DNA of 64,000 nucleotides from an uncultured Gammaproteobacteria bacterium (GTDB lineage Bacteria; Patescibacteriota; Microgenomatia; Levybacterales; UBA12049): assembly GCA_964598355.1 (NCBI GenBank), contig CAZRBN010000001.1, positions 5,839 through 69,838 of the forward strand, given 5' to 3'. Positions within the stretch are counted from its first letter, which is position 1. Every line of letters begins with the position of its first letter. The notes under the pieces were generated by a model. That model did not search any database. It saw only the letters and a list, made by a program, of their open reading frames with translations, and was not told the origin of the DNA. Shown here in pieces: positions 25,450-51,367 of the stretch. The position numbers and the translations under genes are program-made.

Positions 25450-26004
25450 CTATAGCGTTGCAATTGTCGCTTTAAGACGCTTAAAGTCTTGTTCAAAATA
25501 GACAAAATTTTTTACAAATCGAATAGCTGCTGCAGGATGATAGCTTATAAAATATTTCTGTCCATTTTTATTTATTACTTTTCCGTGTTCTTTGGCAACT
25601 GATACCGACATGTCTAAAACTGCTTTACTTGCAACACTTCCCAAAAGTACGAGTAATTGTGGCTGTATAATACCAATTTGTTTCCATAAATAGTGTTTCC
25701 CATGATCTATCTGTTCTTGAGAGAGAGTACCTGTAGCAGGCAAATATTTACCTAAACTTGTTATAAAGACTTCATCTTCTGAAAGTCCTATATCACGTAT
25801 TTGTTTTCTCAGAAGTTGCCCTGAGCGACCAATAAAAGGACGTCCTGTTTCTGCTTCTTGTTTGCCAGGTGCTTCCCCAATAAACATAATGCTAGCATTA
25901 GGATTTCCTTCTCCCGGAACAGGTTTTCCCAAAGATCCTTTTTGGCATACTCTACAATGTGCAATTTCTTCAGCAATTTCTGCCAGTTGTCCCTTTTTAT
26001 TCAT
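25450..26004 (-). CDS. Uracil-DNA glycosylase, family 4
   Basis: HCRVCQK...GEGNPNASIMFIGEAPG...GRPFIGRSGQLL are the family-4 UDG motifs, including the Fe-S Cys ligands. Confidence 0.8.
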   Translation of the reverse strand: MNKKGQLAEIAEEIAHCRVCQKGSLGKPVPGEGNPNASIMFIGEAPGKQEAETGRPFIGRSGQLLRKQIRDIGLSEDEVFITSLGKYLPATGTLSQEQIDHGKHYLWKQIGIIQPQLLVLLGSVASKAVLDMSVSVAKEHGKVINKNGQKYFISYHPAAAIRFVKNFVYFEQDFKRLKATIATL

Positions 26005-30564: not shown

Positions 30565-33075
30565 TTAAGCACTCGGAAGTGAAAGGGTAAAAACAGATCC
30601 TTTCCCTAACGTACTTTCAACGCTTATATCACCTCCATGTTTGGTAACAATATCCCGTGTTATATAAAGTCCCATTCCTAATCCTGGATAGGTACTTTCT
30701 CTTTTCCCAAGAACACGGTAGTACGGTTTGAAAATATTGTGGAGATCTTTTTCTGGAATTCCTATTCCTGAATCCTTCACTGAAAGATGCACATACGCAC
30801 CCTTTTTAGAAAGCGTAAGAATTATTTCCTTCTTATCTTGTGAATATTTTGCTGCATTAGACAGAAGATTGGCCAAGACTTGTTCCATTCTGTACCTATC
30901 TATAGTAACAATACTATCTGTTTTGCCTTTTACAATAAGATGAAAATCCGGAAGAAGTTCTTGATACTGATCGATAAACTCCTTTATAAAAAAATCAAAG
31001 TATATTTCTTTTAATTGTAACGATAGCTTGCCTTGCTGAATAGTCGATTGATCCAATAAATCAGATACAAGTTGCTGTAGCTTATCAATTTGTTCTGCTG
31101 CTTTGGTAACATACTCTGTTTGCTTCCTCGTATCAAGTTTTTTAATATCTGACAGCAAATGCATATAGATTTTAAGACTCGTTAATGGTGTTTTTAACTC
31201 ATGGGATGCCATACTAATAAAGTTATTTTTTCTAACATCTATATCTTTAAATTCTGTAATATCTTGCAACACATTAATGACCAATGGATTTTTTCCATGA
31301 CCTTTATAAATGACTGTTGAAGTAATAGTTAACCAACGAGATTTATTTGTTTTTTTATTAACAAACTTTATTGTTACTTGAACAGTTTTACCAGTTTCGA
31401 ATGCCTTTCTACCTGGCATATTTTCTAGTGGAAATTTTTTACCATACTCATCTTGTAAATCAAATTTATAAATATATTCAAATCGGGGAGATTTCATCAT
31501 CTGTTCTATTGATTCGTATCCTAGCAAATGCATTGCTTCTTTATTTGCATACACAAGAGTGCTTTCACTATCCTGGACTATAACTCCATTAGGAATATTT
31601 TTCAGAATAGCCTCTAATTCCTGCTGTGTATCAATAACTTGTTGCTGAATATTTTTTTCTTCTGTACTATTTCTGTTATACACTGCAATACCTTCAATAC
31701 TTGGATAGATATAATTTTCATACCACATGTTGTGAGATGGATAATATTGAGTCACTGTCATCGGAGTTCTATTTTTCATGACCTGACGCATCGCCTTCCC
31801 TATCTCCAACTTTTCTACATCTGGAAAAACATTCCAAACAGTTTTTCCTAGAACATCATCTCTTTTGATATGCCCCATTTCTTCTCCTTTTTTATTTACA
31901 TATACATAACGCCACTCTTTATCCATAGCATAGTATCCGTAATTAAAATTCTCAACAATTTCCGTAATCTTTCTATTTTTTCCTTCAAGTTCTAATTCAT
32001 ATAATTTTTTGTCTGTAATATCACGAAAATTTGAAACAATACCTTTCACTGCTGCATCAGCAAGGAAATTTGATGAATTTGCTTCTATCCAACGCCATTC
32101 ACCCTTTTTATTTTTTACACGAAATTCTCCTTTTATATTCTTTTCTTTTGTAAACAGCATTTTACGAATATTCATTATAAGAGGGAAATCATCTGGGTGA
32201 ATGATTTTTTGTAAGGACATTTTCAAAAACTCATCCTGAGAATATCCTAAAATTTTTTTTATAGATGATGAAACATACGTGAATTTTAAATTTCCATTAC
32301 TTACAAGGATTCCATCTGAACTATTTTCAATAAGAGATCTGAACTTTTTTTCATTCATTAAAAGATCTCTTTTCACTGATTCATGTTCTGTTATATCCCT
32401 GTTAATCTCTAAGATTTTTGTTGTATCGCCTACATGTAATAAGGACCAGCGACTTTGAATAATAAGTTCTTTACCTTTTTTGGTAATGTGTTTTATAGTA
32501 CCTTCCCATGTTTTTTTCTTCTCAATTTCTTTATGAATTTTTTCAAGAGAAATAGGATATACTGTCTTCAGAATAGTATCTCCATGCTTACCAATAACTT
32601 CATTGCTCTTCCACCCATATAAATCTTCTGACCCTTTATTCCAAAAAACTATTTTATTATTTTTATCCATAATGAAAATCGCCTCATGAGACAGTTCTAT
32701 AAGTTTTGCTTTTTCAATAAGATCTTCTTCAAGTTTATGTCTATTGGTAATGTCTGTATAAAAGATCACTATCCCTTGACTAGTCTTGTAGGCATTCCCT
32801 CGAAGCCATTGCTTACCACCTGATGAATAATATTCCCAGGTATAAGGTTTGCCGGTTTTGAGAACTATTTGAAGGGGCTTTCCTAATTTTGTATGTAAAA
32901 TGCCTGGGAAAATATCAGTTACTTTCTTTCCCAAAACATCCTCTTTTATCTTATTAATAATCTCGCAAGCTCTTTTATTGATATACGTGTATCGCAGTTC
33001 ATTATCAAACGTAATAATAGCGTCATTAATAGAATCAAACAGAGAAACGAGATGATTATTGCCATCAAAGTCCAT
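30565..33075 (-). CDS. Cytoplasmic multi-PAS sensor histidine kinase
   Basis: 836 aa with about 5 PAS/PAC modules, H-box ISMASHELKTPLTS and an HATPase_c domain with DSGIGIPEKDLHNIFKPYYR. Its stop abuts the msrA stop (convergent, 0-bp gap). Confidence 0.8.
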   Translation of the reverse strand: MDFDGNNHLVSLFDSINDAIITFDNELRYTYINKRACEIINKIKEDVLGKKVTDIFPGILHTKLGKPLQIVLKTGKPYTWEYYSSGGKQWLRGNAYKTSQGIVIFYTDITNRHKLEEDLIEKAKLIELSHEAIFIMDKNNKIVFWNKGSEDLYGWKSNEVIGKHGDTILKTVYPISLEKIHKEIEKKKTWEGTIKHITKKGKELIIQSRWSLLHVGDTTKILEINRDITEHESVKRDLLMNEKKFRSLIENSSDGILVSNGNLKFTYVSSSIKKILGYSQDEFLKMSLQKIIHPDDFPLIMNIRKMLFTKEKNIKGEFRVKNKKGEWRWIEANSSNFLADAAVKGIVSNFRDITDKKLYELELEGKNRKITEIVENFNYGYYAMDKEWRYVYVNKKGEEMGHIKRDDVLGKTVWNVFPDVEKLEIGKAMRQVMKNRTPMTVTQYYPSHNMWYENYIYPSIEGIAVYNRNSTEEKNIQQQVIDTQQELEAILKNIPNGVIVQDSESTLVYANKEAMHLLGYESIEQMMKSPRFEYIYKFDLQDEYGKKFPLENMPGRKAFETGKTVQVTIKFVNKKTNKSRWLTITSTVIYKGHGKNPLVINVLQDITEFKDIDVRKNNFISMASHELKTPLTSLKIYMHLLSDIKKLDTRKQTEYVTKAAEQIDKLQQLVSDLLDQSTIQQGKLSLQLKEIYFDFFIKEFIDQYQELLPDFHLIVKGKTDSIVTIDRYRMEQVLANLLSNAAKYSQDKKEIILTLSKKGAYVHLSVKDSGIGIPEKDLHNIFKPYYRVLGKRESTYPGLGMGLYITRDIVTKHGGDISVESTLGKGSVFTLSLPSA

Positions 33076-33202: not shown

Positions 33203-33775
33203 TTATTGTGTTTCTTCTCTTCCTTTTTTTAAAAGTGTAGCATACCAAATAAGTTGAGGTATCATTGCATCTGCTTGAGATTGAAGATGTTCTGTTTTTA
33301 ACCTTCCCTTTTCATCAAGCTGTGTCCAGTAAAGAGGAATATGCACTCCTGCTCGAATTGGTGTCATCTGCAATTCGATAGCAACTTGTCGAAGCTGTTG
33401 AACAGCTCTTGTACCGCCAGCAATTCCTCCATAGCTAACAAAAGCGATGGGTTTGTTATTCCATTGTTTGTAGACATAATCCAAAGCATTTTTCAAAACA
33501 GCGGAGTATCCATGATTGTATTCAGGAGTTACGATAACGTATGCATCTGCTTCACCAATTTTATCAGCCCATTTTGCAGCTAATTCATTTGTATATTTTC
33601 CACCCGAGGTAGAGGGAGACATAGGCTCATCAAAGAAAGGAAGAGGCCAGTCACGTAAATCAAGAAGCTCTACATCAAGACCTTTTTGTTTTTTTAATTC
33701 TGAAAAAATCCACTGGGCTGGTTGTTCTCCAAAACGCTTTTGTCTAGTACTTCCGATAATTACCTGCACCTTCAT
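33203..33775 (-). CDS. NAD(P)H-dependent FMN reductase family oxidoreductase (flavodoxin-like fold)
   Basis: MKVQVIIGSTRQKRFG...YVIVTPEYNHGYSAVLKNALD is the NADPH-dependent FMN reductase signature. Confidence 0.7.
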   Translation of the reverse strand: MKVQVIIGSTRQKRFGEQPAQWIFSELKKQKGLDVELLDLRDWPLPFFDEPMSPSTSGGKYTNELAAKWADKIGEADAYVIVTPEYNHGYSAVLKNALDYVYKQWNNKPIAFVSYGGIAGGTRAVQQLRQVAIELQMTPIRAGVHIPLYWTQLDEKGRLKTEHLQSQADAMIPQLIWYATLLKKGREETQ

Positions 33776-33839
33776 CTTATTTGCATGATACGCTCTTATA
33801 CTTTACTTTGTAAAGTAGTTACCTTTTCTAAAGTATATC

Positions 33840-34538
33840 TTATTCTTGGATAGTATAGGTAAGAATAACTTGAAGAGTTGGTAAGGATTGCTCTCCACTC
33901 AGTAATGTTACATGATTTTTCTTATCTATAATAAATAAGGCAGGCAATTGACTAACTCCTGCAGTTTCTCCGGTTAATTTTTCCTGTTGTACTCGACTCG
34001 TCATTTCTCCTGTATCCAAACACTTCATGAATGATGTTTCTGAAATCCCCAATTCCTTCGATAACGGAATCAGTTTTCCCAATGCAAAACCTTCTCCACC
34101 TTCTATACCTGCTGTTCTTTTGAAAATCTCATCAGTATATCTCCAATATATACCTTGTCCTCCAATTTTTCCTGCACATAAAAAACCTACTGCTTCTATC
34201 TTGGCATTTATATATACGGGGAGAGGAAACATACTTTCGACAAAGCGAATATCTTTTCCATATTGCTTAAGAAGTCTTTGAAAAACAGGATGCATTCTCT
34301 GACAAGAAGGACACTCAAAATCTGAATATTCAATAAGGGTTACAGCTGCTTGCGTATTACCAGTTGTATAAGCTGAAGATCCAACTTTTTCAAGATTTCC
34401 TTGAGGAGTTTGGAGGGTATTAGGTGGAAGAGCAGCAAAGGCTTTTTGACGATTTTCAAGATAACTAACTCGCATAAACAACGAAATAAGAATTATAGAG
34501 AGCACTCCTAATCCCAAAAAAAGAACCACTTTTTTCAT
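33840..34538 (-). CDS. Membrane-anchored DsbA-like thiol:disulfide oxidoreductase
   Basis: N-terminal TM, then YSDFECPSCQRMH, a thioredoxin-fold CxxC active site. 232 aa. Confidence 0.7.
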   Translation of the reverse strand: MKKVVLFLGLGVLSIILISLFMRVSYLENRQKAFAALPPNTLQTPQGNLEKVGSSAYTTGNTQAAVTLIEYSDFECPSCQRMHPVFQRLLKQYGKDIRFVESMFPLPVYINAKIEAVGFLCAGKIGGQGIYWRYTDEIFKRTAGIEGGEGFALGKLIPLSKELGISETSFMKCLDTGEMTSRVQQEKLTGETAGVSQLPALFIIDKKNHVTLLSGEQSLPTLQVILTYTIQE

Positions 34539-34606
34539 ATCGTTATTGTACCAAAGAAACGTATGATTTCCTCATCATACGTTTCTTCTTTCAACGTTAC
34601 ACAGTT

Positions 34607-35032
34607 TCACTTCGTTGGATGAGGTGTTACTCTTATTTGCATTTGTTGAGGATTCAGCTGAATATTTTGTGCTGTAACAGACCCATCTGCATTCTGGTTT
34701 CCAAATATCATTACCTGCTTTCCCGTTTGCAGTGCATCTTTTCCTGCACTTGTTGCTTCAGTGATAGATGTGTTAACAGATACAACAATAATCTTACTTG
34801 ATCCGTCCATCATCTTTACCGTAATAGTATTGGCATCTGCACTAATAATTTCGCCTCTGATTGGTCGAGCATTCCCAGATTGGCCACCAAATCGTCTCCC
34901 TCCGTTTTGCGTCATTCCTGCTTGGCCAAAAAATGTTACCTTTTGCATTTTTTGATATTGCATACCTCCAAAAAATGCTCCTGCACCAACAAGAACAACA
35001 ATGACAATTGTTATTATCCAATGATTTTTCAT
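34607..35032 (-). CDS. Secreted/anchored hypothetical protein
   Basis: 141 aa with an N-terminal signal/TM and a Gly/Gln-rich linker. No recognisable family. Confidence 0.4.
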   Translation of the reverse strand: MKNHWIITIVIVVLVGAGAFFGGMQYQKMQKVTFFGQAGMTQNGGRRFGGQSGNARPIRGEIISADANTITVKMMDGSSKIIVVSVNTSITEATSAGKDALQTGKQVMIFGNQNADGSVTAQNIQLNPQQMQIRVTPHPTK

Positions 35033-39605: not shown

Positions 39606-40283
39606 TTAACTTACTCCTACCTTGTATCCAAAGCCTCGTATTGTGTGAATAAGTTTTAGTCTGTTAGGAAAGGGTTTATCAATTTTATTTCGCAAGTACC
39701 CTATATAAACCTCTATCGTATTGGGAAGAATATCTGCATCATAATTCCATACATGAGTAATAATTTGTTCTTTCGATAGTATTTTATTTTGATGACGAAG
39801 CATATATTCCAGAAGTGCAAATTCTTTACTTGAAAGCTGCACTTCTGTACTTCCGCGTTTTACTTCAAAAGAATCGATATCCAAAGATAAATCACCACAT
39901 GAAAGGATATTGCTCACACTTTTTTTAGGCCTTCTTACTAACGCGCGAATTCTTACCAGCAATTCTTCGAAAGCAAATGGCTTTACTAAATAGTCATCTG
40001 CTCCAGCGTTAAATCCTTCGAGTCTATCTTGCAATTGTCCTTTTGCTGTTAACATGAGGATTGGAGTATGGTTTTCTTTTTCTCGAAGATGCTTGCAGAT
40101 TGTTACTCCGTCTATTTCTGGTAAAAGCCTATCTAAGATAATAAGATCATACTCTTCAGTACTGGCCAAATCCAATCCTTCTGTTCCAGTATAGACAACA
40201 TCTACTGTATAGGATTCTTGCTCAAGACCTTTTTTAATAGATCCCGCAATCTTATAATCATCCTCAACTAATAACAATTTCAT
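39606..40283 (-). CDS. OmpR-family response regulator, cognate partner of the adjacent kinase
   Basis: MKLLLVEDDYKIAGSIKKGLEQESY...LIILDRLLPEIDG...ILMLTAKGQ plus a winged helix. The ORF track extends to 40316. Confidence 0.85.
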   Translation of the reverse strand: MKLLLVEDDYKIAGSIKKGLEQESYTVDVVYTGTEGLDLASTEEYDLIILDRLLPEIDGVTICKHLREKENHTPILMLTAKGQLQDRLEGFNAGADDYLVKPFAFEELLVRIRALVRRPKKSVSNILSCGDLSLDIDSFEVKRGSTEVQLSSKEFALLEYMLRHQNKILSKEQIITHVWNYDADILPNTIEVYIGYLRNKIDKPFPNRLKLIHTIRGFGYKVGVS

Positions 40284-40333
40284 GAGGTTATTATACTCCT
40301 TTTGTCCTGAGAACAAGCTGAAAGGAAGCTTAA

Positions 40334-41836
40334 TTAAACAAAACCTGGGAAGTAATCTTTTTTAATGTGAGAAATACCAATTTTTTTCAACGTATTTCCA
40401 AAGGATTCTATCATGGCATTTGGGCCCGAAAGATAAAAAATTCTCTCTTTAAAATCTGGGATTTCTTTTTGTATTAATTGTTCATCAATTCGTCCTATAT
40501 GTCCTTTCCAGTTTTTGGGAATGTTTTTGATATCTGTAATAGTATAGATAACTTTTATTCCCATCTCTTTTGCTGCTTCATCAAATATATTTCTATAAGC
40601 AAAATCCTCATAATTTTTTGCGGTATATAACACAACAATATCTCGTTTTTCTTTTGTATCTAGTATAGATTTCACCATACTTCTAAATGGCGTAACACCA
40701 ATTCCTCCTGCAATAAAAACAAGTTTTTTCCTCAGATCTTTTGGCATAGTAAAATCTCCTGCTATTTGACCTGCTATAATTTCACTATTTTCAGAAAGAG
40801 AAGAAAGCTTGTTTTTAAAACTACTCCCATGAGGAGTAAATCGTACTCCCAAAACAATATCTCTTTCTGTAGGTGATGAAGCAATAGTAAAATAGCGCCT
40901 ATTCCCTCGACTATCACTTTTGGAATGAGATAATGTCCACTCCATATATTGTCCTGGAAGAAAAGAAAACTTCTGAGAGGTTGAGAAAATAACATTATAG
41001 ATATCCTCTGTTATCTTCGTTTTCTCTTTCAACAGTAATTGAAGTCTTACTTTTGGACTGACAATGAAAGAATAGATATTCCCTAAAAGTAGTGCTATTT
41101 CAGGAGTTGTGTAGAAATTTACAACATGAATTTCTGGTGAGAAAAGCAATCCTACTATTCCTCCATACACAAGTTGCAGTATTCTTGTTGGTGGAGTTGT
41201 TAAGGGCTCGGTTAACATAACGAATGCAAAAAAGAGAATTGGGGTCTCAAGTAATGTATTTTTTAAATAAACTAAAGGATCTGTTTTATGTGTAATGTCA
41301 AAACCAAAAATAGTGAGGAGCGCTACAATAAAAAAAGTAAAGACCATATCTTCTCGTCTAATTTTTCTTACAACCAATAATCCCCCTATCAAAACAATTG
41401 GCATCATCCACACTGTCCCAACCCACCAACTTGCATATTGTCCAGTAATAAGTCCTCCAAGAGCGATACCAAAAGCAACAGGATTAAAAATATGTTTTTT
41501 ATTCAGATTTACGATATATTTGGAAGCAATAGTAATTAGTGCAGCAATTGCCAAAAATACTATAGATTTTGGACTGATAATAAGAGCTAAAATAAGTGCG
41601 GAGATATATACAGATTCAATATTTGTCTGAACCGTAAAAAGCACTGCAAACACTTTATTTGTAACCCAACATATACTGAGCAAAAGAAATGTTGAAAGCA
41701 AAAGGGCAAATGGGGTAAATGGAAGCAGATGAAAGAAAGTGAGAATTTCAGCAATAAGCAATAATACCATAAGATAGTACAGCAAAAGTCTGTACATAGT
41801 GATTCTGTTAAGATAGTAGTCAACAAAAGTAAACAT
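40334..41836 (-). CDS. Membrane oxidoreductase: ~270-aa polytopic N-terminal domain fused to an FNR-like FAD/NAD(P)H-binding reductase module
   Basis: Six or seven TM helices, then RRYFTIASSP (the RxYS FAD-binding motif) and VFIAGGIGVTPFRSM (NAD(P)-binding GGxGxxP). 500 aa. It shares one strand and tight spacing with the ApbE and FMN-binding genes. Confidence 0.65.
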   Translation of the reverse strand: MFTFVDYYLNRITMYRLLLYYLMVLLLIAEILTFFHLLPFTPFALLLSTFLLLSICWVTNKVFAVLFTVQTNIESVYISALILALIISPKSIVFLAIAALITIASKYIVNLNKKHIFNPVAFGIALGGLITGQYASWWVGTVWMMPIVLIGGLLVVRKIRREDMVFTFFIVALLTIFGFDITHKTDPLVYLKNTLLETPILFFAFVMLTEPLTTPPTRILQLVYGGIVGLLFSPEIHVVNFYTTPEIALLLGNIYSFIVSPKVRLQLLLKEKTKITEDIYNVIFSTSQKFSFLPGQYMEWTLSHSKSDSRGNRRYFTIASSPTERDIVLGVRFTPHGSSFKNKLSSLSENSEIIAGQIAGDFTMPKDLRKKLVFIAGGIGVTPFRSMVKSILDTKEKRDIVVLYTAKNYEDFAYRNIFDEAAKEMGIKVIYTITDIKNIPKNWKGHIGRIDEQLIQKEIPDFKERIFYLSGPNAMIESFGNTLKKIGISHIKKDYFPGFV

Positions 41837-41923
41837 ATATAAAATTAAAAATTATGGTACTTTTATTTATAATACGTGAGGCATCATCACTTTTCACTTT
41901 TAATTGTAAATTTTTAATTTTAT
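41837..41923. promoter_or_regulatory. Recurrent AT-rich element flanked by the inverted repeat AAAATTAAAAATT ... AATTTTTAATTTT; it fills the whole spacer between the ApbE gene and the membrane oxidoreductase gene
   Basis: TATAAAATTAAAAATTATGGTACTTTTATTTATAAT contains TTAAAA, a 17-bp spacer and TATAAT (41868-41873). The reverse-complement arm lies at 41908-41923. Confidence 0.4.
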
Positions 41924-42664
41924 TTATATTGTGTACTTCTCCCATCCACTGGTATACGTCGCCAGACCTTCACTGTCTATCATATATCCTTCTATGTCTT
42001 TTTGTCTTTCTATAAAATTGATACCGGTCTTTCCCATAGCAAATGCTGCTGTTGCAAATCTATCTGCTTCATAAATATTTTTTCCAATAACAGTCAGGCT
42101 GATAATATCTGTAATAATTGTTCCATTTCGGTGAGGATTATAAACATGTTGTCCTCGTATATACGTACCTGATGTTGCAATGCCTTCGTTAGTCAAATAA
42201 ACAACTTTCACAATTTCTTCTAGATTGAAGGGATTTTTAATACCAACTCTCCATTTTTCCCCTTTACTATTTCTTCCATTCACCTGAATATCTCCTCCCG
42301 CTTCCACGTAATAGTTTTTAAAACCTTCTTTCTCCAGATTCTTTGCAGCGTTATAAATAGCCCATCCTTTCACAAGTCCTGACGGGTCAATATCCCCATT
42401 GTGAACAATGTTAAAATACCCATTTGTATGTTGTCTTGTTTCTTCAGATAGTCTTAAAACTTCCTGCATTGCTTCACTATATTCATTTTCTTTCATTTCT
42501 CCTCTATTAATTTTTGAAATTTCACTATTTTCTTTGTAGGTACTAAAGCGGTTATCTATAGAAATAAAATAATCAAAAACTTTTTCGAGATTTTCTTTCA
42601 TTGCAGAAGGGTCAACTATTTCAATAGTAATGGGCATTCCCATTAAGAAGTGGTTCTGTTTCAT
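41924..42664 (-). CDS. apbE: ApbE/Ftp-family FAD:protein FMN transferase (flavinylation enzyme)
   Basis: MGMPITIEI, GLVKGWAIYNA, EAGGDIQVNG and IATSGTYIRG are the ApbE family motifs. 246 aa, apparently without a signal peptide. Confidence 0.8.
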   Translation of the reverse strand: MKQNHFLMGMPITIEIVDPSAMKENLEKVFDYFISIDNRFSTYKENSEISKINRGEMKENEYSEAMQEVLRLSEETRQHTNGYFNIVHNGDIDPSGLVKGWAIYNAAKNLEKEGFKNYYVEAGGDIQVNGRNSKGEKWRVGIKNPFNLEEIVKVVYLTNEGIATSGTYIRGQHVYNPHRNGTIITDIISLTVIGKNIYEADRFATAAFAMGKTGINFIERQKDIEGYMIDSEGLATYTSGWEKYTI

Positions 42665-43158
42665 TGAGCTTTTGCAAGAGCAGATGCAAGAGATTGATTG
42701 AATGCATCACTAGTCTGTGTTGCACCTGAAATAATATCAACTGGTGCAGATTGTTTTTGGATTACTTCTTGCTTTAAGATAGGCAGTGCTTCATTACTGA
42801 CTTCCGCTGTATGGCCTGGTTTGTTAGGGAATTGAAGAAGTTGCACATCACTAATTTTGCCCCCTGCTACAACCACTTGTACTTGCATCATCCCATAAAA
42901 TGCATCAGTTGTATCTCCTGTATAGGTACCATTTTTATATGCTTTTCCCCCTGCTTGACTAGGTATTGGAGACCCTGACCCAGCAGAAGAGGTGGAAGTA
43001 GTTGCATTATTAGTTGGATTTGCTCCAGCAGAACTTGTTGGATTGGTAGTAATATCAGGAGATTTTGCTGTTGTTGTAGATTGACCGTTTATTTTTTGGA
43101 AGAGAATATATCCTCCTAATACCAAAACTAAAACAAAAACAATTGCTAGTTTTTTCAT
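42661..43158 (-). CDS. Secreted/anchored FMN-binding-domain protein (NqrC/RnfG/PplA-like flavinylation substrate)
   Basis: N-terminal signal/TM and an S/T/N-rich linker. The FMN_bind domain carries DIISGATQTSDAF, the [S/T]GA[S/T] flavinylation motif. Overlaps the apbE start by 4 bp. Confidence 0.75.
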   Translation of the reverse strand: MKKLAIVFVLVLVLGGYILFQKINGQSTTTAKSPDITTNPTSSAGANPTNNATTSTSSAGSGSPIPSQAGGKAYKNGTYTGDTTDAFYGMMQVQVVVAGGKISDVQLLQFPNKPGHTAEVSNEALPILKQEVIQKQSAPVDIISGATQTSDAFNQSLASALAKAQ

Positions 43159-43248
43159 ATACGTTTATGTACTATACCATACTTGTCAAAACTGAGAAAT
43201 AGCTGAAAAAATTCTTATATATTATTTTTGGACTATCCTACAAGTTAC

Positions 43249-44091
43249 TTATACCTCTTTATCCTCATGAGAAACTAGATTATAGAGATGAGGAGAAATA
43301 GCATGCACTAAAGATACAGTAAGCAAGTACGACATTGCTGAAAGACCTGCAATAAAAAAACTTGGTGGACCATGCAACAGTAAGGCTAGTAGTAGTCCTC
43401 CCCATGTAAAAAATAATCCAAGAAGTATAGAGAGCACAATTGTTGTGAAAGGACGCTTACTTATATGTTGTGCTATTGCAGCAGGTGCTACAACAAGAGC
43501 AAATACTAGCAAAACTCCAACGATAAGAATTGCTTCTGTTACTGCTACTGCAAGAAGTATCATAAAAATAATTGATAGAAAATTAACTGGTACTCCTCGT
43601 GCTGTTGCCACTTCTGGGTCAACAGAGGCAAAAAGTAGAGGACGAAATAAGACAACAATGAATATAATTGTAACAATGCCAGTTATAATACTTAGCCATA
43701 AATCAAATGTTGTCACACTGAGAATTGATCCAAAGAGAATACCAACTGCCTCATTAGCATTTGTTGTATAGAGTTTGAGAAACAACACTCCTAGACCTAG
43801 TGCAAAGGAAAGAATCATACCAATTTCGACATCCCTTCCTTGTATTCGTTTGCCAAGTGTTCCCATACCTAGTGCCGCCAAAATGGTAAAAATGAATGTT
43901 CCTGTTAAAGAACTTACACTAATGAGTGCTGCGCCTGTAGCTCCTGCAAACCCAATATGTGACAGTGCATGTGCAGCAAAAGCTTGGGAGCGTAGTACAA
44001 CGAAATATCCAATAACTGCTGACGTTATCGCAATAATGGTTCCCGCAAGAAGGGCATATTGGACAAATTGATAATGAAGAAGAGCAATCAT
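43249..44091 (-). CDS. ABC-3 family metal (Zn/Mn/Fe) transporter permease
   Basis: 280 aa, about 8 TM, ZnuB/TroD-like (LLAGTIIAITSAVIGYFVVLRSQAFAAHALSHIGFAGA). Confidence 0.8.
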   Translation of the reverse strand: MIALLHYQFVQYALLAGTIIAITSAVIGYFVVLRSQAFAAHALSHIGFAGATGAALISVSSLTGTFIFTILAALGMGTLGKRIQGRDVEIGMILSFALGLGVLFLKLYTTNANEAVGILFGSILSVTTFDLWLSIITGIVTIIFIVVLFRPLLFASVDPEVATARGVPVNFLSIIFMILLAVAVTEAILIVGVLLVFALVVAPAAIAQHISKRPFTTIVLSILLGLFFTWGGLLLALLLHGPPSFFIAGLSAMSYLLTVSLVHAISPHLYNLVSHEDKEV

Positions 44092-44900
44092 ATTTTTCTT
44101 TTCGCAACTGCTGGTACAAATAATCGAACAGGCAAATAGATACCAAATGACAATGTAGCAATAAAGAAAGAAACGGGGAGATTTGTTGTAGCTGCTAAGA
44201 AAATACCAATCCAGCTATATAAAAGACCTAAGACAATTGCAAGGCCTATTGCACTGTACGGACTTGTCGTTAATCTCATTGCAGTAGCAGCAGGTCCGAC
44301 AAGAAGAGTAAAAATAAGAAGTACTCCTACTACTTGTACGGAAATAGAGACAGTGATAGCAACGAGAATAAGAAAAGCTATTGAAAGTAATTTGGTCGGC
44401 ACTCCTCGTGCTTCTGCTACTTCAGGATCAAACGAGCTGAAAAGAAGCGGACGAAAAAGAATTGCAAGAATGCCCAAAGTTAAAAGACTAAAAAGTGTTG
44501 TTATAAGCACACTCACTGAACCAATTCCAAGTATCGTTCCAAAAAGGATACTGTATGCTCCTTCTGCATAGCCGACATAAAGAAATAAAAATAATACACC
44601 AAAAGCAAGTGCCAACGTGAAAATAATACCAATTGTTATATCTCTTTCACGAAGTTGTTTTCCTAGAGAACCAATTGCCACAGCTGCGATAATGGTAAAA
44701 AAAAGTAGTCCCCATAATGGATTAATGCCAAGCCAAACTGCTCCTGCTGCTCCTGCGAATCCTACATGAGAAAAAGCATGCCCAGCAAATGTTAACCCCC
44801 GTACAAGAATAAAATACCCAATAACAGCAGCTACAACAGAAACAAAGAAAGAAGCAAGGAATGCATTCTGAATAAATGGATACTGCAGAATCTCAAACAT
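44088..44900 (-). CDS. ABC-3 family metal transporter permease (second subunit, TroC-like)
   Basis: 270 aa, a paralog of the downstream permease (FLASFFVSVVAAVIGYFILVRGLTFAGHAFSHVGFAGA). Confidence 0.8.
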   Translation of the reverse strand: MFEILQYPFIQNAFLASFFVSVVAAVIGYFILVRGLTFAGHAFSHVGFAGAAGAVWLGINPLWGLLFFTIIAAVAIGSLGKQLRERDITIGIIFTLALAFGVLFLFLYVGYAEGAYSILFGTILGIGSVSVLITTLFSLLTLGILAILFRPLLFSSFDPEVAEARGVPTKLLSIAFLILVAITVSISVQVVGVLLIFTLLVGPAATAMRLTTSPYSAIGLAIVLGLLYSWIGIFLAATTNLPVSFFIATLSFGIYLPVRLFVPAVAKRKI

Positions 44901-44905
44901 GGTAC

Positions 44906-45697
44906 CTAACGTTCTTCTCCAAGAACAAAAACTCTTCCTTTCGTTTCTATTACTTCAATTGGTGAATTGTAAAGTTTTGATAGTGCTTCGCTCGTAATAA
45001 CCTCTTCTGTTTTTCCTATTGCACTATGTGTATTTGCCATGTATAAAACTCTATTAATAACTGGAAGAAGCAAATTAACATCATGCGTAACCAGTAAAAC
45101 AGTAATATGTCTGGTACGAGCAATTTTTGTTACTAATGAAACTATTGCTTGTGCATGAGTAATATCTAGATTTGACAAAGGTTCGTCTAAAAGAAGAATT
45201 TTAGGATGAGTAAGCAGTGCTTGCGCTATGAGCAGTCTCTGCTGTTCGCCACCTGATAATCTTCCTACAGGCACATCAGCTAAGGGAAGTAAATCAACTT
45301 CATGGAGGGCGCGTTCTACATGTTGATCTCTCTCCTTATTTGGAAATGAAATACCCCATTTGTTCCCATCTAGTCCAAACCCCACAACATCTCTTGCTCG
45401 TAAAGCTAAATCAGCTTCTAATATCCGATGTTGTGGAGCATACCCCATTTCATTATTACCTCTTTTTGGAGATTTGCCAAGAATGGTTATTCTACCTTTT
45501 GTTGGTTTATATAGCCCAAGTAATAATTTAAGAAGCGTACTCTTTCCTGCACCATTTGGGCCTAACACTGCAATAAATTCTCCCTCATCAATCGTCAAAC
45601 TGATATCATGAAAAATTGTTCTTCCACCAAGTGCAAGATCTACATTTTGTAATTCTATGTCGGGTTGTTGCATAAGTAGTTTTATTGTACTATGCAT
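44906..45697 (-). CDS. Metal ABC transporter ATP-binding protein (ZnuC/TroB-like)
   Basis: Walker A GPNGAGKSTLLK, signature LSGGEQQRLLIAQAL, Walker B LLLDEP. Confidence 0.85.
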   Translation of the reverse strand: MHSTIKLLMQQPDIELQNVDLALGGRTIFHDISLTIDEGEFIAVLGPNGAGKSTLLKLLLGLYKPTKGRITILGKSPKRGNNEMGYAPQHRILEADLALRARDVVGFGLDGNKWGISFPNKERDQHVERALHEVDLLPLADVPVGRLSGGEQQRLLIAQALLTHPKILLLDEPLSNLDITHAQAIVSLVTKIARTRHITVLLVTHDVNLLLPVINRVLYMANTHSAIGKTEEVITSEALSKLYNSPIEVIETKGRVFVLGEER

Positions 45698-46617
45698 TAG
45701 CGAGAAGAGGAAGATGCAAGAGCTTGTTCTAAGTTATTTAACTGATCCATCATCCAACTCTGGTAATGTTTTGTCGTAGGCATAGTTTCAGTTGCCGAGA
45801 CAACTGGAATATTGTTTTGCTTTGCTTCATTTTGGAGATTTGTTGTAACCGGAGTAACCGTTTGTGCATTATAGATAAGGACTTTTACTTGTTTTTTTGT
45901 TATTTGATCGTTTGTTGTTGCAACATCTTGTGCTGATGGATCATTTCCTTCTGCAATTGCTCGTTCAAACCCAATTGGAGTGAGAACAGTAAGGCCCATT
46001 GGTTGCGTTTGGTATAGGTAAATTGTTTCTGTTAAAGCAACTGAAGTGTTAGCGTATTTCATTTTAATCTGGCTCATTTTTTGTTGCAGCGGTTGCAGAG
46101 ATGCATCAAACTTTGCAAGATTTTGATCATATTCTAAAGTATGACTTGGATCATCTTTTTTGAGTGTCTCTGTTATTTTAGCGGCAATTGTTTGAACATT
46201 ATCAAGTCCATACCAAACATGTGGATTATCTTCTAACTTGTGGTTGGCAATATCAGCTCCCACCAAAATAGTTCTATTCTTATTTGGGGATGCAGAAAGT
46301 AGTTTATCCATCCATGTGTCATAACCGGCTCCATTTTCAATCACAAAATTTGCATGACTTATTGCTATACCATCTTGTACATTTGACTCATATTCGTGAG
46401 GATCAACATTTGGGTCAGAAAGAATACTTGTTACTTGGACATTATTACCACCAAGTTGTTTTGTAATATCTCCATAGAAATTTTCTGCTGCAACAATTTG
46501 TAGCTTACTACTTGAATTTTGAATATTCCTATGTCCAGTTAAAACAAAAAAACTCAAACTTATAATACCTATGAGAACTAGTAATAATAAAAAATTTTTC
46601 ATACTGTTTTTTGTCAT
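45697..46617 (-). CDS. Metal-binding lipoprotein / substrate-binding protein (ZnuA/TroA, cluster A-I)
   Basis: Signal peptide. DPHEYE and NPHVWYG are the His-containing metal-site motifs of the TroA/ZnuA family. Confidence 0.8.
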   Translation of the reverse strand: MTKNSMKNFLLLLVLIGIISLSFFVLTGHRNIQNSSSKLQIVAAENFYGDITKQLGGNNVQVTSILSDPNVDPHEYESNVQDGIAISHANFVIENGAGYDTWMDKLLSASPNKNRTILVGADIANHKLEDNPHVWYGLDNVQTIAAKITETLKKDDPSHTLEYDQNLAKFDASLQPLQQKMSQIKMKYANTSVALTETIYLYQTQPMGLTVLTPIGFERAIAEGNDPSAQDVATTNDQITKKQVKVLIYNAQTVTPVTTNLQNEAKQNNIPVVSATETMPTTKHYQSWMMDQLNNLEQALASSSSR

Positions 46618-46686: not shown

Positions 46687-47106
46687 TTATTGTTGACAAT
46701 CTTTACAAAGTCCAAAAAACTCCAAGGAGTGTTGCCTAACTAAAAATCCTTTCTTTTTCTTAATATCTTTTTCAAGTTCGCCAATATTACAATCAGAGAT
46801 ATCTTCAATTTTTCCACACTGTTCACAAATAAGATGGTGATGCTCTCCTTTATTTAATTCATATCGAGCTTTTCCTTCACCAAATTCTACCTTTCGTAAA
46901 AGTCCTTTTTCAACAAATGCATTAATTATTCTAAACACAGTTACCCTGTCTATTCCTAAATCTTTTTGTAAATGATCGATAAGATGCTGTGCATCGAGAG
47001 GAGTATCATGTGATTCAAAAAGCTGCATTGTTGCAACTCGCGCGGGAGTTACTTGCAAAGAAACTTCTTGTAATTCTCTTCTGCAATCGTGTTGCGTATT
47101 TATCAT
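46687..47106 (-). CDS. Fur-family metalloregulator (Zur/Mur/Fur)
   Basis: Winged helix FRIINAFVEKGLLRKVEF, then HHHLICEQCG...CKDC, the metal-site His cluster and two CxxC pairs. 139 aa. Confidence 0.8.
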   Translation of the reverse strand: MINTQHDCRRELQEVSLQVTPARVATMQLFESHDTPLDAQHLIDHLQKDLGIDRVTVFRIINAFVEKGLLRKVEFGEGKARYELNKGEHHHLICEQCGKIEDISDCNIGELEKDIKKKKGFLVRQHSLEFFGLCKDCQQ

Positions 47107-47117
47107 ATCAACATTAT

Positions 47118-47134
47118 ATGCAACTTTGTTGCAT
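47118..47134. promoter_or_regulatory. Perfect inverted repeat ATGCAAC-TTT-GTTGCAT immediately upstream of the Fur-family gene start; candidate operator
   Basis: Read directly: a 7-bp arm, 3-bp spacer, 7-bp arm. It lies 12 bp upstream of the fur-like start codon (minus strand). Confidence 0.35.
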
Positions 47135-47221
47135 GTGTCAATAGCAGTCTTTCAACTAAAATCCTTTAGGAGTATGTGCAGAAAGCGTAAGAGTAACAAA
47201 AAAATAAATAGCAAAAAATTT

Positions 47222-48688
47222 TTATTTTTTCTGTTTTTTCTTCATAATGGGTAAAGAAAAATAAAAAGTAGAACCTTTCTTCTCTTTACTTTCTACCCAC
47301 ATTTTCCCCTGATGTTCTTTAATAATTTGAGAAGAAATATATAATCCCAAACCTAACCCTGGATAAGGTGAATTTCCTTTTACTTGATAAAATCTTTCAA
47401 ATATTTTTTCCTGCTGGCTTTTTGGAATACCTAATCCAAAATCTTTTACATATACCGCAATATGTGTATTATTCTTGTGTGAACCAACATAAACTTTTGA
47501 CTTATCAGGAGAATACTTCGTGGCATTGGTGATAAGGTTAGTTAAAACTTGTTGTATCTTTTCTTTGTCTGCAAATACTGAAGACTTTGTGTGCCAGTCT
47601 AGGATAAGCTTATGAGAAGTTATTGGTTGCAAATCACTTATTACTTCTTCTACCAATTCCTTTACATAAAACTCTTGTTTTTCTATTCTTAATGTACCTC
47701 TTTGGATCTTGGTAACATCAAGTAAATCTCTCACCAAAGCAGTTAACTTTGTAAGCTGTCCATCTAATTTTCCTGTAAGCTGTTGTAATTCTGGATCTCT
47801 TTTCTGAGAAATTTTTTTACTTAAGACCTGTGCAAAAACTTTAATTGTTGTTAAAGGAGTTTTGAGCTCATGACTTGCCATATTAATAAAATCATCTTTA
47901 GCATTTTCTGCTTCCTTTTGACGGGTAATATCATTGATGATTGAAGCAGCAGCAATAATTTTTCCTGCCTGGTTATGTATCACTGAGGCACTGATTTGAA
48001 GGTATACTGTCTTCCCTTGCGCATTTTCAATAGTAAATTCCTTTCCTTCAATTGCTCCACCTTTTTGCAACACTTCTGCCAATGGCAGTTCAGAAAAAGC
48101 AATCGGTTTTCCCTTATACTCACTTTTTTTTAGTGATATATCTTCTATCTGTATGTCTTTACGTATTGATCTTCCTAACATGACTTCTACTTGTTTATTT
48201 GCCTGAGTTATTATCCCTTTATCATCTGTTATCAAAACACCCACAGGGAGTTGCTCGATAATAGCAGCTAATCTCCTCCTCCCATTTGATTCTTTTTCAA
48301 TAAGCTTATCCACTATCTGTTTTAAGCCTCCAATAACAATAACCAGTACCATATAAATAAAAGCGAGCACTACAATAGTCTCCTCCTGTACCAGGAGGTC
48401 TGCAGGAGCCGCGTGTCGTGTGATAACAATATATATGTAATATAAGAGGGTAACGAGAGTTGCAGCTAACCCACCCATAATTCCTTCACGGAAAGCAAAA
48501 TAAATAATCAACGCGACAAAGAAAAATACACCATATACTCCAACAATATTTGGATTGTGAACAATTTTGTAAGCAAATACTTCTGAAATGATTGAAAAGA
48601 AAAGCATTGTCAGAAAAGGAAAGAAAAAAGAGTAGTGTGAATCGCCTAAATGTTGTAGTGGGTTAAGATAGCGAAATATTTTCTTCAT
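47222..48688 (-). CDS. Membrane sensor histidine kinase with PAS domain
   Basis: N-terminal TM helices, a PAS domain, H-box INMASHELKTPLTT and HATPase_c with DFGLGIPKSQQEKIFERFYQ. 488 aa. Confidence 0.85.
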   Translation of the reverse strand: MKKIFRYLNPLQHLGDSHYSFFFPFLTMLFFSIISEVFAYKIVHNPNIVGVYGVFFFVALIIYFAFREGIMGGLAATLVTLLYYIYIVITRHAAPADLLVQEETIVVLAFIYMVLVIVIGGLKQIVDKLIEKESNGRRRLAAIIEQLPVGVLITDDKGIITQANKQVEVMLGRSIRKDIQIEDISLKKSEYKGKPIAFSELPLAEVLQKGGAIEGKEFTIENAQGKTVYLQISASVIHNQAGKIIAAASIINDITRQKEAENAKDDFINMASHELKTPLTTIKVFAQVLSKKISQKRDPELQQLTGKLDGQLTKLTALVRDLLDVTKIQRGTLRIEKQEFYVKELVEEVISDLQPITSHKLILDWHTKSSVFADKEKIQQVLTNLITNATKYSPDKSKVYVGSHKNNTHIAVYVKDFGLGIPKSQQEKIFERFYQVKGNSPYPGLGLGLYISSQIIKEHQGKMWVESKEKKGSTFYFSLPIMKKKQKK

Positions 48689-49440: not shown

Positions 49441-51264
49441 ATGATTAAATTTGTCGGAGTTGCCCAAAAATACAAAGAAGTTGTCCTCTATTTTCTTCAA
49501 ACTGAAGGCGATAATACATTCTTTAAGGCAGTAATTAGTCAAAATGGGTTTGAATTTGGAGACACAAGCAAATATGTTTTTGCACTCGACAATATGCAAC
49601 GTGAAGAGCAAAGCTACAACTGGGATAGCTTCCGTATTGCAAAAGAGGGACATGAATATATATTGACCTATAAACATAATACGGAAAAAAATGGTCTTTT
49701 ACTGGGTGCCTTATCCACTGATCTTACTGTTTGGCAAAAAATAGGAAAAATTGAAAACATCACTGAGACAGGCACAGTAGTCCCTGAGTACCAACATCAT
49801 GATACCTTTGTGATGTATGTTGGAGAAAAAGAAATAAAAATTGCTTACTCGAAAGATTTAGTAACATGGAAGTTAGATACAACTCCGCTTCTTACCCCAC
49901 GTCCTGAATTCTTTGATGATAGTGACATAGAAGTTGCTAACGCATACGAAAGAGATGGGCATATCCTTCTTATTTATTACGTAAAAAAACAAGGGGATGG
50001 CACTCCTCGCTTTTTAGTAGGCGCTGCATATTTTGATAAAGCAAATCCTTCTAAACTCGTATGGAGATCTGATGAACCAATTTATGAACACCCTCAAGAA
50101 TTTTATAAAGAGAACATTCAGCCTATTGGCTCTGCAATTATACATGACCAACTTATTTTGTATTGGTCAGTTAATGAAAGCAGTATCTTTTCAGTTGCTT
50201 GCCCAATTCCTGTTATTACAGAAGTTCCAAAGAAAAAAATCTTTTCCTTTCTTATTAACAAAGCCACAAACAATCCAATCATTACGCCACGACCCAATGT
50301 CCCATGGGAATCCAGAGCGACCTTTAACACTGCAGCAATCTATGAAGATGGCAAAGTTCATTTTTTATATAGAGCTCTTGGTGATACCGACCTTTCAGTC
50401 TTAGGCTATGCAACAAGTACAGACGGTCTAACAATTGACGAAAGATCCGATTTACCCGCATATATTCCTCGCGAACCTTTTGAAACGCCAGGTGGTCATC
50501 AATTTAATTCAATGGCGCAACATTTTGCATCAGGAGGCGGATATGGTGGAGTTGAAGATCCACGCATTACCCGAGTTGAGGATAGAGTGTACTTAACCTA
50601 CGTTGCATTTGACGGAGCGACACCTCCACGAGCTGCAATGTCTAGTATCCATATTGATGATTTCTTGAAAAATAATTGGGAGGCATGGAATAAAGCAAAG
50701 CTTATTTCAGCGCCTGGCATGGTCAATAAAAGCGCTGTTGTTTTGCCTCGGAAAATAAAGGGGAAATATGTTGTGATGCATCGTGTTTACCCAAATATTC
50801 TTATAGATTACCTAGACAATTTGGAGTTTAACGACTATTTACAAGGACATTATTTTATTCCACCACGAAAAAAATTTTGGGATAGTAAAAAAGTTGGCGC
50901 AGGAGCTCCCCCAATGGAAACAAAAGATGGCTGGCTTCTTATTTATCAATCAGTTGGATATCAGGATCCTGGACGATATAAGATAGGAGCTATGATGCTA
51001 GATAAAGATAATCCATCAAAAGTCCTTTATCGTACTCACACACCAATCATTGAACCAAATGAAGACTATGAGAATAGTGGGTTTAAAGCAGGCGTTGTGT
51101 ATCCTTGTGGTGCTGTTATAATGAAAGATAAGCTGCATGTGTACTATGGTGGCGCAGATACGGTTGTGTGTGCTGCTTCTGCAGACTTGGATACATTTCT
51201 TGATGAAATGAAACATCATCAAGAACCAAAACTCAGAAAAGTGTCCAGTACTTTATTTCATTGA
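49441..51264 (+). CDS. Protein with two GH130-like domains (glycoside hydrolase/phosphorylase family 130, beta-mannoside phosphorylase-like; 5-bladed beta-propeller)
   Basis: 607 aa with two repeated ~300-aa modules. The second carries GGYGGVEDPRITRVEDRVYLTYVAFDG and ends ...YPCGAVIMKDKLHVYYGGADTVV. Both are GH130 (formerly DUF377) hallmarks, including the EDPR(I) catalytic-Asp box. Confidence 0.7.
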   Translation: MIKFVGVAQKYKEVVLYFLQTEGDNTFFKAVISQNGFEFGDTSKYVFALDNMQREEQSYNWDSFRIAKEGHEYILTYKHNTEKNGLLLGALSTDLTVWQKIGKIENITETGTVVPEYQHHDTFVMYVGEKEIKIAYSKDLVTWKLDTTPLLTPRPEFFDDSDIEVANAYERDGHILLIYYVKKQGDGTPRFLVGAAYFDKANPSKLVWRSDEPIYEHPQEFYKENIQPIGSAIIHDQLILYWSVNESSIFSVACPIPVITEVPKKKIFSFLINKATNNPIITPRPNVPWESRATFNTAAIYEDGKVHFLYRALGDTDLSVLGYATSTDGLTIDERSDLPAYIPREPFETPGGHQFNSMAQHFASGGGYGGVEDPRITRVEDRVYLTYVAFDGATPPRAAMSSIHIDDFLKNNWEAWNKAKLISAPGMVNKSAVVLPRKIKGKYVVMHRVYPNILIDYLDNLEFNDYLQGHYFIPPRKKFWDSKKVGAGAPPMETKDGWLLIYQSVGYQDPGRYKIGAMMLDKDNPSKVLYRTHTPIIEPNEDYENSGFKAGVVYPCGAVIMKDKLHVYYGGADTVVCAASADLDTFLDEMKHHQEPKLRKVSSTLFH

Positions 51265-51367
51265 AATTATAAGAGCAAAATGAAAAGTTAAAAGTTTTGG
51301 TACTTTATGCTTATAGATAGATTCCTTAACTTTACATTTTTAACTTTAAGCTTTTAACTTAATTTAT

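Follow-up and report, generated by a model that had tools for sequence, protein, structure and literature searches.

A predicted two-subunit NQR/RNF-like electron-transfer cassette with a leaderless ApbE, next to a Fur-family and probable Mn/Fe-type importer locus in a Patescibacteria genome

Introduction

What do a membrane-bound NAD(P)H oxidoreductase, a flavin mononucleotide (FMN)-binding protein and a flavin transferase do together in a member of the Patescibacteriota, and to which acceptor might they pass electrons? This question is raised by a three-gene cassette on contig CAZRBN010000001.1 (assembly GCA_964598355.1), deposited as an uncultured Gammaproteobacteria bacterium and placed by GTDB in the Levybacterales (UBA12049). 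We analysed positions 5,839 to 69,838 of this contig, a stretch of 64,000 nucleotides that is called the window in the following. The cassette occupies exactly positions 40334-43158 of the window and consists of three intact open reading frames (ORFs), all on the minus strand, which in the order of transcription encode an FMN_bind protein (165 amino acids, aa), an ApbE-family FAD:protein FMN transferase (246 aa) and a 500-aa fusion of a membrane domain with an FNR-type module. A first-pass annotation, made from the sequence alone, had already described three co-oriented, tightly spaced genes with these identities at this place. Position, shared orientation and identities agree with the ORFs and with Pfam (E values in Table 1), whereas the order in which the genes were listed has to be reversed, as they lie on the minus strand.

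The same annotation had proposed a path from cytoplasmic NAD(P)H to a covalently bound extracytoplasmic FMN, and this coincides with a published proposal (PMC8238504, section 13; PMC10979944, section 8). Méheust et al. 2021 define an NQR/RNF-like system as a PF03116-PF00175 fusion that lies inside a gene cluster associated with flavinylation, and in their paper NAD(P)H is proposed as the cytosolic electron donor for an FMN-binding domain on the extracytosolic side and VIT1 iron transporters are noted in six clusters (PMC8238504). Huang et al. 2024 modelled the pair of Ktedonobacter racemifer by AlphaFold-multimer and found that the flavinylated Thr of NqrB/RnfD is not conserved (PMC10979944, section 8). 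The basic finding is already in the literature, where a full-text search turned up these two papers alone on the system, and the system is so far defined bioinformatically only.

We show here that the window cassette belongs to this family. Judged by its sequence and predicted structure, it is a two-subunit, cut-down relative of Na+-NQR and RNF. On balance, and with somewhat better than even confidence, we favour the view that it is an NQR/RNF-like, flavinylation-associated transmembrane electron-transfer system that carries its own ApbE, and that it would locally reduce Fe(III) or another oxidised metal for the importer encoded next to it.

Results

The 500-aa protein had been described as a domain of six to seven transmembrane helices fused to an FNR module. 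The fusion stands, but its AlphaFold2 model (pLDDT, predicted local distance difference test, 81.5) predicts 10 helices with both the N- and the C-terminus of the membrane domain in the cytoplasm. This domain stays below the threshold of Pfam NQR2_RnfD_RnfE (PF03116; E 3.5e-5, 23.8 bits against a cut-off of 27.7), and precomputed annotation assigns PF03116 to most of the close homologues, under the name 'RnfD subunit / ferredoxin-NADP reductase'. When a profile of the membrane domain was compared with all PDB sequences, RnfD was the sole match (8ahx_D, E 0.0065), and structural comparison identifies the fold as that of NqrB/RnfD. The electron-input protein is an NqrB/RnfD homologue and not of a different kind, as had been supposed.

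In an alignment of 23 homologues, residues 1-262 contain no conserved Cys, no conserved pairs of His and no ligands for haem or Fe-S clusters; H115, the only invariant His, lies in a cytoplasmic loop. Because His pairs and Cys are missing, the protein is not a haem protein of the NOX/ferric-reductase type, and on this point the alignment agrees with the first-pass annotation. The flavinylation-type motif [ST]G[AS][ST] is absent from this region in all 23 homologues, and five buried polar residues (N72, E74, K106, E210 and E246) are invariant. The order of helices in the AlphaFold2 model places the ASWWVG loop, which sits at the position of the NqrB/RnfD flavinylation loop, on the outside and the FNR domain on the inside. 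The latter begins directly after helix 10 and is matched across residues 270-491 by NCBIfam models of the FNR family (best 9.4e-25), as expected from the earlier assignment. The motifs RRYFTIASSP (residues 313-322) and GGIGVTPFRSM (377-387) that had been quoted for it are present, together with a C-terminal DYFPGFV; the Pfam model NAD_binding_6 scores under its cut-off. An NqrF-type 2Fe-2S ferredoxin domain is absent ahead of the FAD/NADH domain, and the match of the nqrF model is limited to positions 210-394.

The FMN_bind protein opens with MKK and a membrane helix (residues 4-21), which is followed by a linker of about 49 aa rich in S, T, P, N, A and G and by the FMN_bind domain (residues 78-164). 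Its predicted flavinylation site is Thr147 (codon 42718-42720), about 20 residues before the C-terminus and at the end of the SGAT motif (residues 144-147) in VDIISGATQTS; the longer motif that had been quoted, DIISGATQTSDAF, is found at residues 141-153. The best solved relative is an FMN-binding domain of a multi-FMN protein of Streptomyces azureus (8p2a, E 1.7e-14), to whose sequence SGAT aligns; for this protein a potential of -184 mV and the reduction of O2 are reported (PMC12052999, section 16). The window protein had been annotated as secreted. While the hydrophobic N-terminus and the flavinylation motif are indeed there, the hydrophobic core of 17 residues (Kyte-Doolittle 2.6-3.0) comes with no AXA-type site, and this N-terminal segment resembles a membrane anchor that stays in place more than a signal that is cleaved off.

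The topology was evaluated in 78 orthologues. Almost all of them begin with MKK and a hydrophobic helix, and the flank before this helix carries on average 2.2 K/R as compared to 1.0 after it, being the richer side in 52 orthologues and the poorer in 5. The linker has a median length of 55 aa, 73% of which are S, T, P, N, Q, G or A, and a C-terminal VD[IV][IV]SGAT motif ([ST]G[AS][ST]) is found in 77 of the 78. The charge bias, the long linker and the C-terminal motif thus support an anchored protein with its N-terminus inside and its C-terminus outside, in which the domain with the flavinylated Thr would face outward.

The cassette ApbE is predicted with high confidence by AlphaFold2 (pLDDT 93.6). 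In Foldseek searches it matched FmnB, ApbE and Ftp structures with E values of 4e-20 to 1e-14 and TM-scores of 0.81-0.90 when normalised to the query, but 0.65-0.72 when normalised to the target (Listeria FmnB, 7esb: E 4e-20, 0.88 and 0.70). This asymmetry agrees with a shortened helical insert, since between residues 86 and 92 of the query about 55 residues are missing that E. coli ApbE has (its residues 104-162). The motifs DPSGLVKGWA (DPSGxVKGWA), AGGD, ATSGTY, RGQH (RGxH) and EADRFATAAF are invariant or nearly so throughout the clade. DPSGxVKGWA, AGGD, ATSG, RGxH and ADRFAT belong to the active site (FAD/Mg) of ApbE structures, and because these known motifs are retained the protein is very probably an active transferase.

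What sets this ApbE apart is its N-terminus, MKQNHFLMGMPITIEIV / MKQNHFLMGMPITIEIVD, in which no more than seven residues precede the first beta-strand; residues 2-7 and 10-16 are core beta-strands in the AlphaFold2 model. Neither a signal peptide nor a lipobox was found in the window protein, nor anywhere in the clade, and no in-frame start codon lies upstream of the gene. The same N-terminus, with the consensus MK[QE]TR[LI][LI]MGMP[IV]TVE[IV]VD, is found in most of about 65 cassette ApbEs, for which the longest ORFs were taken, and in all 23 aligned clade members. Of more than 7,800 database relatives, the best 120 range without exception from 238 to 262 aa, with identities of 59-75%, and are too short for a leader. 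Sequence comparison thereby delineates a very large and highly conserved ApbE clade with a shortened insert and no signal peptide. We met no mention of a leaderless, shortened ApbE in the accessible portions of PMC8238504 and PMC10979944; the terms 'signal peptide' and 'leaderless' are absent from the latter and 'cytosolic ApbE' from the former.

Database relatives or clusters of the fusion protein number more than 7,500 at E <= 1e-5, with identities of typically 52-57% over the full length and of up to 75%. When a single genome was scanned for each species, at least 594 species-level matches were confirmed; the best 80 of them come from many lineages of Patescibacteria, from Chloroflexota (Ktedonobacteria, Anaerolineae) and from Actinomycetota, and include the cultured Dictyobacter aurantiacus S27 and Ktedonospora formicarum SOSP1-1. 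The order FMN_bind, ApbE, fusion is kept in about 65 of 82 related loci, which represent different species of three phyla, and this identifies the cassette as a real, mobile and self-contained module. Its surroundings are highly variable; among the two genes on each side in 77 loci there is no conserved terminal reductase. An NQR/RNF-like system was originally reported from 127 genomes (PMC8238504), a number that the family, found here in at least 594 species-level genomes, far exceeds. In part this is because PF03116 often stays below threshold, as in the window protein and many close homologues, and screens that combine PF03116 with PF00175 under-count the system and would probably have missed the window protein.

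Measured against the published definition, which asks for ApbE and/or FMN_bind within five genes of the fusion and for an export signal on at least one of them, the window has both genes immediately upstream of the fusion and a hydrophobic anchor on FMN_bind. The fusion itself combines an N-terminal NqrB/RnfD homologue with a C-terminal NqrF-like NAD-binding domain, and the [ST]GA[ST] motif of an NqrC/RnfG-like subunit is present on FMN_bind, while the Thr of NqrB/RnfD is lost. The architecture (fusion, NqrC/RnfG-like FMN_bind subunit and an ApbE in the cluster) is identical to that of the NQR/RNF-like system, and the taxa match as well (Candidate Phyla Radiation (CPR), Actinobacteria, and Chloroflexota such as Ktedonobacter). 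Some of the known clusters likewise have iron-transporter neighbours; the window differs in that its neighbour is a Fur/ABC-3 locus of Mn/Fe type and not VIT1, and nothing essential differs.

Upstream of the cassette lies an ABC-3 importer (43249..46617) and, ahead of it, a Fur-family gene; the two permeases, the ATPase, the ZnuA-type binding protein and the Fur-family regulator that had been noted as neighbours are all recognised by Pfam (Table 1). The closest solved relatives of the binding protein are PsaA, MtsA, MntA and YfeA, and it has a Glu aligned with the Glu ligand of PsaA, where Zn-type proteins have His; by these features the importer is probably of the Mn/Fe type rather than Zn-specific.

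In front of the fur gene, a perfect 7-3-7 palindrome, ATGCAAC-N3-GTTGCAT (47118-47134), lies between the -35 and -10 hexamers of a perfect consensus sigma-70 promoter. It recurs at the same position in L001 (promoter region 4818-4845), a 70%-identical relative, and no second exact copy exists in the window or before FMN_bind. It is probably the operator, non-classical in sequence, of an autoregulated Fur-family operon. The last permease gene and FMN_bind are separated by 90 nt, ApbE and the 500-aa gene by 87 nt, and the 500-aa gene and the response regulator that follows by 17 nt, and the start codon of ApbE overlaps the stop codon of FMN_bind (ATGA). No Shine-Dalgarno-like sequence is visible before the cassette genes (43159-43175, 41837-41860 and 42665-42680, minus strand). 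Between fur and the histidine kinase there is no credible minus-strand terminator, the sole terminator-like site lying inside the 500-aa ORF. Synteny with L001 is identical from fur through MacB.

Table 1. Predicted features of the cassette and of its surroundings, with positions in the 64,000-nucleotide window
Feature	Position	Strand	Evidence
NqrC/RnfG-like FMN_bind protein, 165 aa	42661..43158	minus	Pfam FMN_bind 1.6e-9
Compact leaderless ApbE-family FAD:protein FMN transferase, 246 aa	41924..42664	minus	Pfam ApbE 2.1e-42
500-aa fusion, whole ORF	40334-41836	minus	NAD_binding_1 5.8e-18
NqrB/RnfD-like membrane domain, residues 1-262 of the 500-aa protein	41051..41836	minus	
FNR-type FAD/NAD(P)H domain, residues 263-500 of the 500-aa protein	40334..41050	minus	
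Sigma-70 promoter TTGACA-17-TATAAT upstream of fur	47113..47141	minus	promoter scan 12/12
Fur-family regulator, first gene of putative operon	46687..47106	minus	Pfam FUR 9.8e-27
ZnuA-type binding protein	45697-46617	minus	Pfam ZnuA 3.7e-49
ABC ATPase	44906-45697	minus	Pfam ABC_tran 1.1e-34
Two ABC-3 permeases	44088-44900, 43249-44091	minus	Pfam ABC-3 8.5e-54, 8.1e-50
OmpR-type response regulator	39606-40316	minus	Pfam Response_reg, Trans_reg_C
Histidine kinase, 335 aa	38522-39529	minus	Pfam HisKA, HATPase_c

Downstream, the cassette is followed by an OmpR-type response regulator and a histidine kinase. In 10 of 77 loci (L001, L006, L008, L009, L022, L026, L036, L040, L052 and L062) such a pair is encoded no more than two genes away from the cassette, with a frequency of 5.7% as compared to 1.7% further away (about 3.5-fold, p 0.0009). 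It may be a co-transcribed regulator dedicated to the cassette, though its membership of the module is uncertain. Elsewhere in the window, sensor histidine kinases rich in PAS and GAF domains are encoded at 25997-29545 (1182 aa), 30565-33075 (836 aa) and 47222-48688 (488 aa); three such kinases in 64 kb would be unusual if this is a Patescibacterium with a minimal genome.

The kinase of the pair is followed by a MacAB-like efflux system. Downstream of the latter, at 33203-35032, we found genes for a DUF5666 protein, a DsbA/Thioredoxin_4 protein and an NADPH-dependent FMN reductase (FMN_red 3.7e-44). This block is syntenic in L001 (16706-18533), and DUF5666 occurs in three downstream-neighbour sets of other loci; it could represent a further extracytoplasmic redox or flavin link. 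Divergent from the region of the Fur operon lie two adjacent GH130 genes (beta-1,4-mannooligosaccharide phosphorylase family, 49441-53299), a pair that also stands beside the syntenic block in L001.

The window contains no rRNA or tRNA. The sole Rfam match at the gathering threshold, RF03531 ('C. difficile sRNA included into helicase gene', where sRNA stands for small RNA; 18183-18277, plus strand, 67.5 versus 65.2 bits), lies inside a 618-aa ORF (16557-18413) and for this reason is probably conserved coding sequence and not an sRNA.

Discussion

From these components a path for electrons can be proposed. The FAD of the FNR domain would, judged by homology, oxidise NAD(P)H in the cytoplasm and would reduce a flavin held non-covalently in the NqrB/RnfD-like domain, through which the electrons would cross the membrane, as in the proposal of Huang et al. 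2024. A non-covalent flavin is assumed here because ligands for any other cofactor are missing and the Thr for a covalent FMN is lost. From there the electrons would move to the FMN that ApbE is predicted to attach by a phosphoester to Thr147, a residue placed by motif and topology on the outward-facing domain. The covalent FMN would then reduce an extracytoplasmic acceptor, whose identity we infer from the genomic context only. Since no terminal partner is conserved across the family, the outward-facing flavoprotein is probably itself the terminal reductase.

Compared with Na+-NQR and RNF, the homologous parts are NqrB/RnfD, NqrC/RnfG with its covalent FMN on Thr, the FAD/NADH domain of NqrF and the ApbE maturase. 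The window cassette differs in having two subunits only, in lacking a 2Fe-2S ferredoxin domain and in lacking the covalent-FMN site of NqrB/RnfD. Neither NqrA, D or E nor RnfA, B, C or E was found among the genes annotated between 30.5 and 53.3 kb or among the top flanking families of 77 loci. There is no quinone or ferredoxin half of the path, so the flow of electrons is presumably one-way and outward, and the system probably does not pump ions.

The parallel that had been drawn to the PplA/FmnB system of Listeria holds as an analogy, but not as a membership, as the score for the PplA model is 22.8 bits, where 325 would be required. Shared with extracellular electron transfer in Listeria is the logic by which cytoplasmic NADH feeds a surface FMN_bind protein that is flavinylated by ApbE and passes electrons to external acceptors including Fe(III). 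However, the cassette lacks the Ndh2, quinone (DMK in Listeria) and EetAB step, and no Ndh2 or EetAB was found among the annotated neighbours in the window; the lipoprotein PplA has two FMN_bind domains, and FmnB, also a lipoprotein, is exported and receives FAD via an energy-coupling factor transporter (FmnA/RibU), whereas the window ApbE is leaderless. With NOX, FRE, SpNOX and STEAP proteins the cassette shares an FNR-type domain fused to a membrane domain that sends electrons outward, and it is through the FNR domain that SpNOX was matched in structure. The membrane domain of these proteins is a six-helix, bis-haem domain, while that of the window has the 10-helix NqrB/RnfD fold without haem ligands; the two His pairs, the two b haems and the six-helix domain of the NOX/FRE family are all missing.

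Which acceptor does the system serve in this genome? A Fur-family gene and a Mn/Fe-type importer precede the cassette, and no terminator intervenes; from this gene arrangement, its local job is most likely the reduction of Fe(III) or of another oxidised metal for uptake by the importer. Other loci also have metal-related neighbours, namely Nramp (L002, L010), VIT1 (L030, L037) and Fur/ZnuA/ABC-3 genes (L045, L067). In 7 of 77 loci metal-homeostasis genes are found no more than two genes away from the cassette; their frequency is 3.2% in this range and 0.7% beyond it (odds ratio 4.8, with a Fisher p of 0.003, an optimistic p-value as the test treats the genes of an operon as independent).

Several points weigh against this view, beginning with that last statistic and with the rarity of the arrangement: no more than 7 of 77 loci have metal genes beside the cassette, which excludes iron reduction as a general function of the family. 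At the locus itself, the candidate operator is found at the fur promoter only and not in front of FMN_bind. Furthermore, a weak promoter-like site with an extended -10 lies directly before FMN_bind (43198-43171), which would leave a 5′ untranslated region of only about 5 nt; in view of this internal site, co-transcription with the importer is putative. The intramembrane flavin is likewise a prediction, and in the searchable literature we found no experimental work on flavinylation, NAD(P)H oxidation or acceptor for any member of the family. Finally, a leaderless ApbE is hard to reconcile with a target on the outside by the standard route of extracytoplasmic flavinylation.

The first of these points leads to the strongest competing explanation, which we regard as a real possibility, albeit the less probable one. 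The same machine could serve as a general outlet for reducing equivalents, regenerating NAD(P)+ by the reduction, at the cell surface, of O2, of quinones or humics, of free flavins or of acceptors derived from a host, and its metal neighbours would be incidental or specific to some lineages. About 90% of the loci have neither a conserved terminal reductase nor a metal gene beside the cassette, the family is spread very widely among Patescibacteria and Chloroflexota (at least 594 species, more than 7,500 protein clusters), and the protein to which the closest solved FMN-binding domain belongs is reported to reduce O2, its potential being -184 mV (PMC12052999, section 16). Against this stand the enrichment of metal genes beside the cassette and the arrangement in the window and in L001, where the cassette is enclosed between Fur/ABC-3 genes and a two-component system without a terminator. 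The two explanations can apply to different genomes: in most of them the cassette may be a more general electron outlet, while in this one we favour metal reduction for the importer.

The second difficulty, that of the leaderless ApbE, concerns the place of flavinylation. The first-pass annotation had assumed that ApbE acts outside the cytoplasm, which is not straightforward in a clade that lacks an export signal throughout. This ApbE has the fold and the conserved motifs of the family; what it lacks is the signal peptide or lipobox and a complete helical insertion domain. In Salmonella, a cytosolic ApbE cannot complement, and the cytosolic ApbEs that are documented, those of Klebsiella and of trypanosomatid fumarate reductases, have cytosolic FMN_bind targets (PMC12052999, section 6). 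The window ApbE resembles these cytosolic enzymes (Klebsiella pneumoniae, trypanosomatids) in having no secretion signal and differs from them in its target, which is anchored and predicted to face outward.

Some ways around the problem were considered and rejected. A hidden leader can be dismissed, as every ORF was taken at its greatest possible length and core beta-strands make up the first 16 residues. A fusion of FMN_bind and ApbE by frameshifting at the ATGA overlap does not serve as a general mechanism, since the spacing varies (4-nt overlap, gaps of 4 and 37 nt), and it is also contradicted by the reversed gene order in L002. Export of a pre-folded, flavinylated domain by the twin-arginine translocation (Tat) pathway was discarded, as most orthologues begin with MKK and have no twin-arginine motif. 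Three options are left: export of ApbE by an unrecognised route, flavinylation at the cytoplasmic face before or during translocation, or an FMN_bind domain that is itself cytoplasmic.

The second of these can be put forward as a tentative idea, to which we give rather low odds. The leaderless, compact ApbE would flavinylate the FMN_bind protein from the cytoplasm, either ahead of its export or while this is under way, and the tail with its Thr-bound FMN would be passed through the membrane. In principle such a course is plausible, since ApbE flavinylates unstructured tags of 7 residues (PMC12052999, section 18) and since the site in question is close to the C-terminus. If true, an extracellular covalent flavoprotein could be made with neither an exported ApbE nor export of FAD, and this could explain the presence of surface flavoproteins in Patescibacteria with reduced genomes and in Chloroflexota.

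The third option, a cytoplasmic flavinylated domain that acts as a tethered carrier between the FAD of the FNR domain and the NqrB-like domain, would turn flavinylation into an ordinary cytosolic ApbE reaction. It would account for the lack of a leader across the ApbE clade and has precedents in the documented cytosolic ApbE/FMN_bind pairs (PMC12052999, section 6). We nevertheless hold it to be improbable, for it conflicts with the positive-inside bias (K/R 2.2 versus 1.0; 52 orthologues as against 5) and with the length of the S/T/P-rich linker, with the outward orientation of NqrC and RnfG, and with the published AlphaFold-multimer model, in which the subunit lies on the extracytosolic side, next to the place where the NqrB-like domain formerly had its FMN site (PMC10979944, section 8).

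Very improbable in our judgement is an ion-translocating pump, a minimal NQR/RNF that would couple the oxidation of NAD(P)H to the export of Na+ or H+, or run in reverse. The homology of the membrane domain to NqrB/RnfD of ion-pumping complexes and the invariant buried polar residues named above would fit such a device, but NqrD/E or RnfA/E, the intramembrane 2Fe-2S carriers and the other subunits are absent from the operon and from the annotated neighbours, and the semicircular path that underlies pumping is missing (PMC8238504, section 13). That the genes stand together by chance, or are decayed remnants that do not cooperate, is effectively refuted by conservation and hardly deserves credence, as the order is kept in about 65 of 82 loci across three phyla, the fusion and ApbE are 52-75% and 59-75% identical to their relatives, the ORFs are intact and the key motifs invariant, and no point was found in favour.

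An outward electron path with local metal reduction is thus the reading that we retain, and it bears on the biology of the carriers in several ways. The conserved ApbE without an export signal poses a concrete puzzle as to where and how flavinylation happens, and the putative Fur and Mn/Fe importer operon around the cassette is one of the clearer contextual hints to its function. Patescibacteria (CPR) are for the most part without respiratory chains, and few membrane redox devices besides the cassette can be recognised in them; the identity of its acceptor would tell how these organisms get rid of reducing power or acquire iron or manganese in reduced form.

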